Source of the DNA: a virus
Lineage: Duplodnaviria > Heunggongvirae > Uroviricota > Caudoviricetes
Reading direction: 5' to 3' (one strand)
DNA: 27,887 nucleotides
Virus record (IMG/VR): IMGVR_UViG_2585427725_000003
The position numbers and the translations under genes are program-made. The notes beneath the pieces are model-generated. The model worked only from the letters and a program-made list of their open reading frames with translations. It was not told the origin of the DNA and did not search any database. Of this stretch, positions 24,581-27,887 are shown one piece after another (within the stretch, counting starts at the first letter, position 1; each line of letters begins with the position of its first letter).

Positions 24581-25648
24581 ATGACACAGAACTGGATGAG
24601 ACATTTCGAGCTGCAGCTTGTGGACGGGAACGGTCAGGGAATTGAGCTAAGTGATTTCAAAGTCACCTTTACGATCGACTGGTTCAACATCAGCAGCGCG
24701 TCCCGGGTAGGGACTATCAAAATTTATAACCTCTCGGCAGATACTGTGAACCGAATTACCGGGCAGGAGTTTTCGAAAGTGCGTCTGATTGCGGGTTACG
24801 ACGGTATCGCGCCGGAGGTGTCGGCAAGCGATGTCGGGACCGTGCGGGAGGTTGATGCGGCGGACGTGGGCCAGAGTGATGGCCGCAACTACGGACTGAT
24901 TTTCAGCGGTGAAATTCGCTACTCGGTCACAGGAAAAGACAGCCCGGTTGATTCCTACGTCCTGATTCAGGCAGCCGATACAGATCTGGCTTTTGCCACC
25001 AGTATAACCTCACAGACGCTGGCTGCCGGTTACACGGTCGCTGATGTGAACCGTGCGCTGATGAAAGACTTCGAAGCCAAAGGTGCGACCGAAGGCCTGA
25101 CGCCTGAAATGCCTGCTACTGTATTCCCCCGGGGGCGGGTACTCTTTGGCATGACGCGGCATCTTATGGATAATGTAGCCGGGCAATGTGGCGCAACATG
25201 GCAATTCGTGGATGGTCAACGCCAGATGGTGGCGAATAATGAATATGTTCACGAAGCGATTGTGCTCAACAGCGCTACCGGGCTTATTGGCATGCCGCAG
25301 CAGACTATCGGTAACGGCGTAAACGTCCGCGCGCTTATTAATCCGAACATCCGGGTTAACGGGCTCATTCAACTGGATCAGGCTTCAGTGTATCGTACCG
25401 CGTTGTCGAACAACGATATCGCGATGGCCGGTGGGCAGATCACCGACCAGAACACGGACGGAAATATTACGCTAAGCGGCACCACATCGCAGCCTGCCAG
25501 CATCGCAACGGATGGCGTTTATATTGTGCGTGGGATTATGTACACTGGCGACACAAGGGGGCAGGCGTGGTACATGGATATGATGTGTGAAGCACGTGGC
25601 GCGGCTGATCTACTTTCGTCCTCAGCGCAGCAAAGGATTTATTCATGA
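24581..25648 (+). CDS. Putative baseplate hub / tail protein
   Basis: Track ORF, 355 aa, directly after the preceding tail genes. Function by position and size only. Confidence 0.45.
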   Translation: MTQNWMRHFELQLVDGNGQGIELSDFKVTFTIDWFNISSASRVGTIKIYNLSADTVNRITGQEFSKVRLIAGYDGIAPEVSASDVGTVREVDAADVGQSDGRNYGLIFSGEIRYSVTGKDSPVDSYVLIQAADTDLAFATSITSQTLAAGYTVADVNRALMKDFEAKGATEGLTPEMPATVFPRGRVLFGMTRHLMDNVAGQCGATWQFVDGQRQMVANNEYVHEAIVLNSATGLIGMPQQTIGNGVNVRALINPNIRVNGLIQLDQASVYRTALSNNDIAMAGGQITDQNTDGNITLSGTTSQPASIATDGVYIVRGIMYTGDTRGQAWYMDMMCEARGAADLLSSSAQQRIYS

Positions 25649-25992
25649 AGCGTATGAAGTTAGTTTTGACAATTTCGTTATTATTTTCTTGTTCAGCAGC
25701 TTTTGCTGATTTGCAATGCGGCGGATATCTACTTCATGCAGCTGATAACGGTTGGACAAAAATCAACGGTGAGCAGGTAACATCACAGAAGATTACGTTT
25801 CTTGGTAAGAAAGATGACTGGGACAACGTTAAAACTAACATGGGCCTGATGCCTTCTCGCGATGGCAACAATTACGGCTTTGAGTTTGTGAAGCGTAACG
25901 GAAAAGCTTTCCTGAACGTCCAGCTTCTGCAGAACAGCATGGATGCGCCTAAAATCATCGGATCATTCCCTTGTAAAAAGGCGTTACGCTAA
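25645..25992 (+). CDS. Secreted or lipoprotein-like small protein (115 aa), low-GC moron appended to the tail operon
   Basis: ATGA overlap with the upstream gene stop. MKRMKLVLTISLLFSCSAAFADLQCGG...: N-terminal signal peptide (possible lipobox LFSC or SPase I site AFA/D), two further Cys. Visibly AT-richer than the tail genes. Confidence 0.6.
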   Translation: MKRMKLVLTISLLFSCSAAFADLQCGGYLLHAADNGWTKINGEQVTSQKITFLGKKDDWDNVKTNMGLMPSRDGNNYGFEFVKRNGKAFLNVQLLQNSMDAPKIIGSFPCKKALR

Positions 25993-26029
25993 AGTTTGAT
26001 GTCAATCTTCCGAGATGAGCGCTTTAAGG

Positions 26030-26058
26030 TTGACGAGATATTGTTCAAAGTTCACAAT
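26030..26058 (+). promoter_or_regulatory. Candidate sigma70 promoter for the two-gene cargo module
   Basis: TTGACG (26030..26035), 17-bp spacer, CACAAT (26053..26058), about 30 nt upstream of the ATG at 26088. Confidence 0.35.
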
Positions 26059-26087
26059 CACAATCCCTTTAGTAAGAGAAATAATCC

Positions 26088-26861
26088 ATGGCGGCAGGCA
26101 TCCCATTAGAAAAAGCGCAAAAATATATTGAACAATTCAATGCGCTTCTATTGGATAGGGAAAGTTTAGATCCCTTCACTGAAAAGAAAATTCGAGAGGA
26201 ACTTTCTGTCTCTCCAACGCCTGCTACCAACATTGCACTATCTTATCTGGATGCAATAACCGGAAAGATTGAAAGCGCGTTACGTTATCTCAGGATAAGC
26301 CTAGAAGTAAACGATGTAACGTTGGCAATGCACTATCATCACATTTTAATTAATACATTTAGCTATAATGAACTCAAGGATGTCTATGTCCCGCTGGCAA
26401 AGAAGTATCGGACAAAACTCTTTAGTCACAACGCATACAGTTGGGCGTACCGTTGCGGCGAGCGTGAACAGTTAAAATTTTATATGGAAGAGCACATTAA
26501 GCTTCTTTCTGAATCAGAAGGCAGGAGTAATGCTATGAAGCACAAAGAAGAACTCCTTGCAGAAATGGATAATTTCTATAGCGCCACACAGTGCTCGAAG
26601 GAACAGTTCCAGACCTTAGCATCCATAATCTGGGGCTTGCTAAGTGAATACAAGGCTACGACAGGTTTCGTTCAGCTTAGTGGAAGCGGTTGCTATGTTG
26701 TTGATATTAAAAATCTTGAGCCTAAAACTATTGCCAAAATGAACTTCGACTTGGCTGATAGAGTCTGCGCTGAATCTAAACTGGATGATTGTTCCCTGTT
26801 AGCTAGATTTACCTCTCCGCGTCAGTTGCATACGGGGGTGAGCTACCATGTCGGTAACTAG
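26088..26861 (+). CDS. Hypothetical protein (257 aa), first gene of an AT-rich two-gene module
   Basis: Track ORF. No recognisable motif; specifically no GS...DxD nucleotidyltransferase signature. Its last codons overlap the start of the next ORF by 14 nt. Confidence 0.6.
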   Translation: MAAGIPLEKAQKYIEQFNALLLDRESLDPFTEKKIREELSVSPTPATNIALSYLDAITGKIESALRYLRISLEVNDVTLAMHYHHILINTFSYNELKDVYVPLAKKYRTKLFSHNAYSWAYRCGEREQLKFYMEEHIKLLSESEGRSNAMKHKEELLAEMDNFYSATQCSKEQFQTLASIIWGLLSEYKATTGFVQLSGSGCYVVDIKNLEPKTIAKMNFDLADRVCAESKLDDCSLLARFTSPRQLHTGVSYHVGN

Positions 26862-27129
26862 CAATCAGATTCTCGATACCGCTCGATTATGTCTGTCTGA
26901 AAATATTGAGAGTGGATTTCGAAGCGCTATCTCAAGGGCGTATTACAGTATGTTACATGAGTCTATTAGCTCACTTACTGCCATACCGCATTTTACCCAT
27001 GAGCATCACAAAAATACTGTGGGTTATATGTCAACGCCCTCAGAGTGCAAATCAGAGCCATACCCGACAAATACACTGAAATCCCTAGCTTTCGTACTTC
27101 GCCAGTGGCGGGATGCTAGAAATGAATAG
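26848..27129 (+). pseudogene. HEPN-like protein gene, 3' end interrupted by IS2
   Basis: ATG at 26848 after GGGGGTGA. MSVTSNQILDTARLCLSENIESGFRSAISRAYYSMLHESISSL... contains S-R-AYYSML-H (R-x6-H), resembling the conserved HEPN helix motif as I recall it. The reading frame ends at TAG 27127..27129, which is the first three bases of the IS2 terminal repeat. Confidence 0.5.
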
Positions 27130-27217
27130 ACTGGCCCCCTGAATCTCCAGACAACCAATATCACTTAAATAAGTGATAGTCTTAATACTAGTTTTTAGAC
27201 TAGTCATTGGAGAACAG

Positions 27218-27583
27218 ATGATTGATGTCTTAGGGCCGGAGAAACGCAGACGGCGTACCACACAGGAAAAGATCGCAATTGTTCAGCAGAGCTTTGAACC
27301 GGGGATGACGGTCTCCCTCGTTGCCCGGCAACATGGTGTAGCAGCCAGCCAGTTATTTCTCTGGCGTAAGCAATACCAGGAAGGAAGTCTTACTGCTGTC
27401 GCCGCCGGAGAACAGGTTGTTCCTGCCTCTGAACTTGCTGCCGCCATGAAGCAGATTAAAGAACTCCAGCGCCTGCTCGGCAAGAAAACGATGGAAAATG
27501 AACTCCTCAAAGAAGCCGTTGAATATGGACGGGCAAAAAAGTGGATAGCGCACGCGCCCTTATTGCCCGGGGATGGGGAGTAA
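27218..27583 (+). CDS. insC: IS2 transposase OrfA (InsC)
   Basis: ATG at 27218: [56 protein letters not shown]... (helix-turn-helix), 121 aa. The track start at 27173 is a GTG inside the inverted repeat. Confidence 0.9.
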
Positions 27584-27887
27584 GCTTAGTCAGCCGTTGT
27601 CTCCGGGTGTCGCGTGCGCAGTTGCACGTCATTCTCAGACGAACCGATGACTGGATGGATGGCCGCCGCAGTCGTCACACTGATGATACGGATGTGCTTC
27701 TCCGTATACACCATGTTATCGGAGAGCTGCCCACGTATGGTTATCGTCGGGTATGGGCGCTGCTTCGCAGACAGGCAGAACTTGATGGTATGCCTGCGAT
27801 CAATGCCAAACGTGTTTACCGGATCATGCGCCAGAATGCGCTGTTGCTTGAGCGAAAACCTGCTGTACCGCCATCGAAACGGGCACA
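27541..27887 (+). CDS. insD: IS2 transposase OrfB (InsD) frame, partial; expressed as OrfAB by -1 frameshift at A6G
   Basis: Slippery A_AAA_AAG at 27535..27541 near the end of insC. The -1 frame is open from there to the window end (…[66 protein letters not shown]…). Confidence 0.8.

Follow-up and report, generated by a model that had tools for sequence, protein, structure and literature searches.

Related systems

HEPN ribonucleases (RNases) are common effectors of toxin-antitoxin (TA), abortive-infection (Abi) and CRISPR-associated systems. In the PF05168/AF0298 branch the catalytic histidine is missing, and we know of no demonstrated mechanism for this branch. Morons, a concept from the HK97 and HK022 literature, are promoter-gene-terminator units located between the late genes of temperate phages. 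Here, we analyze a two-gene cassette at positions 26,030 to 27,129 of a DNA stretch of 27,887 nucleotides (nt) from a tailed virus (Caudoviricetes; IMG/VR record IMGVR_UViG_2585427725_000003), the whole of which is called the window. What is new about the cassette is that it combines a HEPN effector with a new class of partner, which is non-enzymatic and replaces the nucleotidyltransferase (MNT) antitoxin. The two open reading frames (ORFs) and the insertion that interrupts them are as follows (protein lengths in amino acids, aa).

26088..26861, plus strand: ORF1, 257 aa, the partner protein, predicted to be TPR-like.
26848..27129 in the window (93 aa; intact codons 26848..27126), plus strand: ORF2, the first 93 codons of a 131-aa protein assigned to HEPN-T (AF0298-like).
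27127..27887, plus strand: left end of IS2, comprising a terminal repeat that begins TAGACTGGCCCCC, orfA and the first part of orfB; it lies inside ORF2 and runs off the window.

An earlier reading of the letters alone (the sequence-only reading) had reported the two frames and their 14-nt overlap, both of which are confirmed.

Similar to the HEPN-T proteins of the AF0298/UPF0332 type (2hsb, 9xbd, 9xbc), the ORF2 protein has a predicted four-helix HEPN fold and a length of about 125-131 aa. The AF0298 subgroup also shares with it the helix-2 signature S-R-a-Y-Y, an R-x3-D-Y stretch without histidine where helix 3 ends, and a conserved histidine in the insert between helices 2 and 3. In contrast to other members, the E. 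coli ORF2 protein is too diverged for the Pfam model and has a longer helix 2-3 insert. It is also phage-borne and accompanied by a TPR-like partner, whereas the others stand alone or are paired with an MNT.

In type VII HEPN/MNT systems (HepT/MntA), a small HEPN gene likewise lies directly downstream of, and overlaps, its partner gene. However, the nucleotidyltransferase that defines the partner in this type has no counterpart in ORF1, and HepT belongs to the DUF86 branch with a canonical Rx4-6H motif, unlike ORF2. As ORF1 carries no MNT signature, neutralization by AMPylation is very unlikely.

HEPN proteins are also found as accessory cargo of prophages, as is the case for ORF2. HepS of Gifsy-1 and Tha of S. 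aureus phages are Abi proteins triggered by structural proteins of the incoming phage (PMC13043305, PMC11087260), and HepS in particular establishes the prophage HEPN protein as an Abi effector (PMC13043305). HepS differs in that it acts alone, carries a canonical R100-H105 pair and is encoded between replication and antirepressor genes, while ORF2 always occurs with a partner. HepS was not retrieved by profile or fold searches with ORF2, and neither HepS nor Tha is detectably related to it. Operons that couple a HEPN gene to a repeat-protein gene have been listed before, namely AbiU2 with a Sel1-repeat gene, and LA2681 with a TPR protein as fusion or neighbor (Anantharaman et al. 2013, Table 1, PMC3710099). 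They resemble the present pair in the genetic coupling of a HEPN effector to an alpha-helical repeat protein, but represent other HEPN families with canonical motifs, and no sequence relationship to ORF1 or ORF2 was found. No experimental model for the AbiU2/Sel1 and LA2681/TPR pairs was found. Among further candidates, DefensePredictor DS-28, a HEPN protein with a 252-aa protein, was rejected as unrelated in sequence and opposite in gene order, and AbiV was set apart, its antitoxin being an RNA. Literature searches returned no paper on the ORF1 or ORF2 families.

We propose that the cassette is a TA-like or Abi moron with a non-MNT partner that would act from the lysogen. This function is inferred, and we regard the case for it as evenly balanced.

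The HEPN protein

Profile, fold and residue pattern support the placement of ORF2 in the HEPN superfamily, within the AF0298-like HEPN-T (PF05168) subgroup, and the HEPN assignment made in the sequence-only reading has thus held up. The ORF2 family profile matched the solved chains 9xbd (E 2.6e-6), 9xbc (E 1.1e-5) and 2hsb, which is AF0298 (E 2e-3), and four out of ten relatives matched PF05168 (best E 5.8e-5). A structural model was generated with AlphaFold2 (AF2) for P0001, an orthologue 89% identical to the E. coli protein. It is a helical bundle (pLDDT 89.4, pTM 0.85) with helices at residues 5-17, 21-43, 74-95 and 105-130; the insert at 44-73 is partly helical. The top Foldseek match in the PDB was 2hsb (probability 1.0, TM 0.66-0.68), followed by other HEPN proteins (sacsin, HepT and Csx1), with all Foldseek E-values being weak (>=0.06).

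Homologues of ORF2 from Enterobacterales and Aeromonas fall into 28 clusters, of which a few bear the name HEPN or UPF0332 at the source. The PHROG families of both ORF2 and ORF1 are listed as of unknown function. The closest solved relatives by sequence, 9xbd and 9xbc, are recent entries whose only name is 'HEPN domain-containing protein', and the two differ by a tyrosine-to-phenylalanine exchange at the residue equivalent to Y96 of ORF2 (RNRSDYDL in 9xbd, RNRSDFDL in 9xbc). No paper was found to mention 9XBD, the ORF1 accession, or HEPN in combination with UPF0332.

Residues of the putative active site

The key codons of ORF2 are located as follows.

26935-26937, plus strand: R30.
26956-26958, plus strand: H37.
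27007-27009, plus strand: H54.
27118-27120, plus strand: R91.
27124-27126, plus strand: E93, the last intact codon.

The Rx4-6H motif of HEPN domains is placed at the end of helix 3 (Anantharaman et al. 2013, PMC3710099). At this position ORF2 reads R88-D-A-R91-N-E-A-D95-Y96, and no histidine is found there in the ORF2 family. In HEPN-T proteins of the AF0298 type, the arginine is kept, aspartate takes the place of the histidine, and an alternative conserved histidine is contributed by the helix 2-3 insert, this alternative site itself being a prediction (PMC3710099). As a documented deviation, the missing motif histidine is compatible with membership in the AF0298-like subgroup.

Six residues, R25, R30, H54, R91, D95 and Y96, are invariant in the ORF2 family. 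H54 lies in the helix 2-3 insert (44-73) and is kept in 52 of 72 distant HEPN-T relatives. In this distant set, R91, D95 and Y96 are overcounted, since they formed part of the patterns used to retrieve the loci, while H54 and H37 lie outside these patterns. In the E. coli protein, the longer insert carries HH-x-N-x2-GYM and ECK-x-EP motifs. The sequence-only reading had taken the string SRAYYSMLH for the HEPN motif. The string is present, and its R30 and H37 are both invariant in the close family, but it lies in helix 2 and not at the end of helix 3; R30 is part of the family-wide S-R-a-Y-Y signature, and H37 is kept in just 28 of the 72 distant relatives.

These residues bear on whether the protein is an enzyme at all. 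It could instead be a non-catalytic nucleotide- or RNA-binding adaptor, with the pair serving as a regulator or binding-type inhibitor, which we consider improbable. The replacement of the canonical histidine by D-Y would suit such a role, and motif-less HEPN domains may work through binding alone (PMC3710099). However, the six invariant residues exceed the usual needs of binding, and the same residue pattern is seen in HEPN-T proteins that are paired with MNT antitoxins. Further, a solved relative was deposited with the tyrosine-to-phenylalanine variant at the Y96 equivalent, which suggests that others hold this residue to be functional.

The partner protein

ORF1 matches no Pfam, NCBIfam or PADLOC family and corresponds to phrog_17809. 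In its AF2 model (pLDDT 91.8), paired helices span residues 7-139, one long helix spans 146-167, and the C-terminal domain at 171-242 is small and alpha/beta, with the order helix-strand-strand-helix-strand. A broad ORF1 profile matches TPR and PPR chains with E-values of 1e-7 to 1e-10, and profile and model together indicate that the N-terminal half consists of TPR-like repeats. ORF1 homologues form 40 close clusters and, at E <=0.001, 121 clusters among 1.84 billion representatives, most of them full-length at about 250-260 aa. An alignment of 62 diverse members contains no invariant or near-invariant column and no conserved polar residue, which argues against an enzyme.

As stated in the sequence-only reading, the upstream protein is not an MNT and belongs to no described family. 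No nucleotidyltransferase was matched by ORF1 at E-values up to 10, including PF01909, and no conserved G-S or D-x-D was seen, while true MNTs were found beside distant HEPN-T relatives with the same tools. A degenerate MNT motif in the C-terminal domain (G-S-G...V-V-D-I-K) was considered and rejected: neither D206 nor the G-S is conserved across the wider family, and the topology is predicted to be that of a beta-hairpin. Searches of the 257-aa protein for HTH, RHH or AbrB-type domains gave no match.

Intact alleles and the IS2 insertion

The window copy of ORF2 is interrupted by IS2. The insertion follows codon 93 (E93), and its first three bases supply the TAG stop of the shortened frame, so that A94, D95, Y96 and the whole of helix 4 are lost. 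All intact E. coli copies cease to match the window at 27126, and the breakpoint can be seen directly in an alignment of the window, a second interrupted contig (L099) and an intact locus (L001). Thousands of E. coli records annotate the inserted sequence as IS3-like and assign it to the IS2 family. The insertion, and not a natural gene end, is what makes the ORF 93 aa long. The sequence-only reading had pointed to IS2-free homologues as a means of recovering the intact 3' end, and these gave a gene of 131 aa, read from E. coli 357900 (L001). Intact 131-aa HEPN ORFs are located at:

7249..7644 in L001.
7069..7464 in L002.
5001..5396 in L003.

An intact cassette is found at NZ_CP038859.1 2777197-2778507. 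In the window copy, the effector is dead and the partner gene alone is intact. Disruption by IS2 means that this copy cannot be a working module. The same junction occurs in IMG/VR contig IMGVR_UViG_2585427779_000001 (L099 5040..5151), which ends inside IS2, and is absent from all 5,426 complete E. coli genomes searched. The insertion is also polar in the tail operon, where the spike and baseplate genes lie downstream of it, and the window prophage is therefore probably defective for tail formation. A one-base length difference among E. coli copies lies in the spacer before the spike gene and outside the HEPN ORF.

The intact cassette is found in 27 of the 5,426 complete E. coli genomes. In 24 of these 27, RefSeq annotates no HEPN ORF, which, together with the lack of curated family matches, would be expected of chance frames or decaying remnants without function. 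Conservation, selection and predicted folds refute this explanation, to which we assign almost no weight. Across Enterobacterales, Aeromonas and Vibrio phages, conservation of both ORFs extends over the full length, both fold with high confidence, and amino-acid change is restrained while synonymous sites are saturated. For ORF2, pN is 0.07-0.41 and dN/dS, where measurable, is 0.035-0.057, a pattern of purifying selection. ORF1 and ORF2 are both real genes. In the GenBank record of Klebsiella phage ST405-OXA48phi1.3, the HEPN gene is split into two small coding sequences despite a continuous frame.

Linkage of the two genes

Co-occurrence of the two genes, raised as a check in the sequence-only reading, was observed from both sides. 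In a survey of HEPN loci that took one genome per species, an ORF1 homologue overlaps the HEPN start in 11 of 11 close copies with upstream sequence. This set includes a divergent E. coli pair in which HEPN identity is 39% and partner identity about 18%. From the other side, IMG/VR loci were found with the closer ORF1 alignment, the broad alignment being too diverged for scanning, and the HEPN gene lies directly downstream in all 40 loci found in this way, with the overlap kept in every one. Across 34 distinct loci, the pairwise identities of ORF1 and ORF2 correlate (r=0.96), and ORF1 is the less conserved of the two in 93% of 561 pairs. The position of the partner gene, upstream of and coupled to the HEPN gene, corresponds to the antitoxin/toxin order of type II TA systems.

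Partner-first order, the 14-nt overlap and strict co-inheritance suit any TA pair, and it is common for a TA locus to take an insertion sequence in its putative toxin gene while the partner gene survives. The cassette might thus be a plain addiction-type TA module that stabilizes the prophage or persists selfishly and neither senses nor blocks phages. We think this unlikely, as the partner has no DNA-binding or autoregulatory domain and is large and well folded (pLDDT 91.8), not small and labile. Its evolution also outpaces that of the effector, suggesting an external ligand. Moreover, post-segregational killing would be of little gain to an integrated prophage, and the cassette occupies a slot with turnover of content.

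It should be noted that distant HEPN-T relatives have other upstream neighbors. In cyanobacteria, a classical 111-aa MNT (PF01909) occupies the upstream position. At other distant HEPN-T loci, the overlapping upstream genes encode 210-260 aa, are neither MNT nor ORF1 homologues, have no Pfam match and fall into several unrelated clusters. Among their hosts are Roseateles, Acidovorax, Methylophilus, Paraburkholderia, Enterobacter pulveris and Methanogenium. It would seem that this HEPN branch has further, unrecognized partner classes. The loci with such upstream genes are:

L016, L019, L030, L036, L045, L066, L075 and L085, each with the HEPN match at about 6001.

Transcription signals and phage context

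The cassette is a moron of SEN34-like temperate myoviruses: it has a promoter, two coupled genes, a terminator, deviant base composition and variable occupancy. In anatomy it does not differ from described phage morons, which share the own promoter and terminator, the deviant composition, the location between adjacent late genes and the variable presence; the moron concept is silent on function. The sequence-only reading had described prophage cargo with its own promoter, which agrees with these data, and in intact copies a terminator is present as well. The following promoter was identified.

26030..26058, plus strand: candidate sigma-70 promoter, with the -35 hexamer TTGACG at 26030-26035, a 17-nt spacer and the -10 hexamer CACAAT at 26053-26058.

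This promoter had been named by the sequence-only reading and is present. It scores 9/12 against the consensus, and the single match is not above chance because two sites were found where 3.2 are expected in shuffles; a -35 TTGAC and a -10 NANAAT or TAnAcT are nevertheless in register in 13 of 17 diverged upstream regions, with a variable spacer sequence. The Shine-Dalgarno sequence of ORF2 is GGGGTGAG, 6-13 nt before its start. In the intact copy of L001, a hairpin (AAACCCGC-TTCG-GCGGGTTT) and a T-run follow the HEPN gene, directly after which the spike gene begins. A GC-rich hairpin with a T-run is found 3' of the HEPN stop in 22 of 22 loci examined. A type III-like RNA antitoxin was rejected, as no meaningful repeats were found and Rfam gave only sub-threshold matches, on the terminator hairpin. 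Over about 25600-27200 the GC content is 0.39-0.435; the upstream tail genes have 0.52-0.58, and IS2 has 0.53-0.55. The cassette is richer in AT than the tail genes, as had been claimed, but the low-GC stretch starts about 450 nt earlier than claimed and also includes the following gene.

25645..25992, plus strand: 115-aa gene, signal-peptide/lipoprotein-like, of the STY1065/STY2022 family (phrog_3443), translationally coupled to the baseplate hub gene.

The N-terminal signal peptide of its product ends in a lipobox-like LFSC, and the product could be an exclusion lipoprotein or a baseplate accessory protein. A gene of about 100-116 aa with variable sequence is found at this position in most related phages examined. 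We treat this gene as context and do not claim it for the cassette.

In prophages of E. coli, Enterobacter, Rahnella and others, the cassette is located between the baseplate hub, with its small protein of about 110 aa, and the spike; the slot is also kept in Rouxiella. Related phages carry other genes in this slot:

SEN34: genes of 77 aa and 138 aa.
vB_EcoM-689R2: a gene of 170 aa.
Mulock: a gene of 148 aa.
YP3: a gene of 266 aa.
E. coli BEN2908: a DUF2335 (membrane) protein.
E. coli AH19B041: the divergent TPR and HEPN pair.
Coordinates of slot cargo: L095 4179-4850; L096 4397-4909; L097 4407-4853; L098 4577-5377; L006 4722-5294; L093 4246-5130.

The hub-spike slot of SEN34-like phages is a possible uncharted cargo hotspot filled mostly with genes of unknown function. 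A Klebsiella phage also has the cassette, beside its tape-measure gene. A distant pair in the P2-like Vibrio phage 10N.286.54.E4_PE001 (L004 4223..5417) consists of a 262-aa protein and a 138-aa HEPN protein with 34% identity. Its neighbors are a late-control gene B homologue on one side and replication gene A on the other, it has its own terminator, and its partner is marginally similar to ORF1 at the C-terminal helix only. In PADLOC-DB 2.0, ORF1, ORF2 and the divergent E. coli pair had no match, while the distant Vibrio phage HEPN protein gave a weak match to HEPN_IX (E 1e-4).

The location within the late tail operon raises the question of whether the pair serves the lytic phase through read-through from the tail genes, by degrading or binding RNA of the host or of competitors, by countering a host defense or by aiding baseplate assembly. 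This would fit the result of the scan, which found no terminator upstream, and the retention of the slot in hosts as distant as Enterobacter, Rahnella, Rouxiella and E. coli. We give such a role a low probability. Related phages, among them the isolated phages SEN34, Mulock, YP3 and vB_EcoM-689R2, have unrelated genes in the slot, and the pair is thus dispensable for virion formation. The conserved promoter and terminator, the foreign base composition and the occurrence of the cassette at non-tail positions in other phage types also speak against it.

Proposed mechanism

We hypothesize that the TA-like or Abi moron would work as follows. The HEPN component, a small protein of the AF0298 type, would most likely be a dimeric, metal-independent RNase whose active site may be formed by R91...D95-Y96 at the end of helix 3 together with His54 from the helix 2-3 insert. 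The predicted non-enzymatic TPR-like partner would occupy the place of the MNT antitoxin in classical HEPN/MNT pairs, bind the HEPN protein and keep it inactive. Its fast-evolving TPR surface could then sense a protein of an infecting phage and release the RNase, leading to abortive infection or superinfection exclusion expressed from the lysogen. A more specific version of this reading holds that the cassette represents an undescribed prophage Abi family, in which an AF0298-type HEPN RNase is held by a phage-triggered, TPR-like sensor-antitoxin, and that the hub-spike junction is an unrecognized hotspot. We put this forward tentatively and consider it less probable than the general assignment.

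Several observations weigh against this model. With the canonical catalytic histidine absent, RNase activity rests on the proposed alternative site, and the E. coli ORF2 sequence by itself matches no Pfam, NCBIfam or PADLOC model. ORF1, at twice the effector's size and lacking a DNA-binding domain, is unlike a typical type II antitoxin. Since the scan found no terminator between the cassette and the upstream late genes, the cassette may also be transcribed, and serve the phage, in lytic growth. Finally, the other slot cargo has no recognizable defense domain and no PADLOC model match, and a defense hotspot is therefore not established.

Implications

For this window the message is modest, as the module has already been broken by IS2. 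More generally, most complete E. coli genomes with the cassette have no annotation for the effector gene, and a cargo slot with genes of unknown function is flagged within the tail module of temperate enterobacterial phages that form a widespread group. The pair offers a tractable E. coli model for asking whether the alternative HEPN site works, how a HEPN protein may be controlled without AMPylation and what a small TPR module senses.

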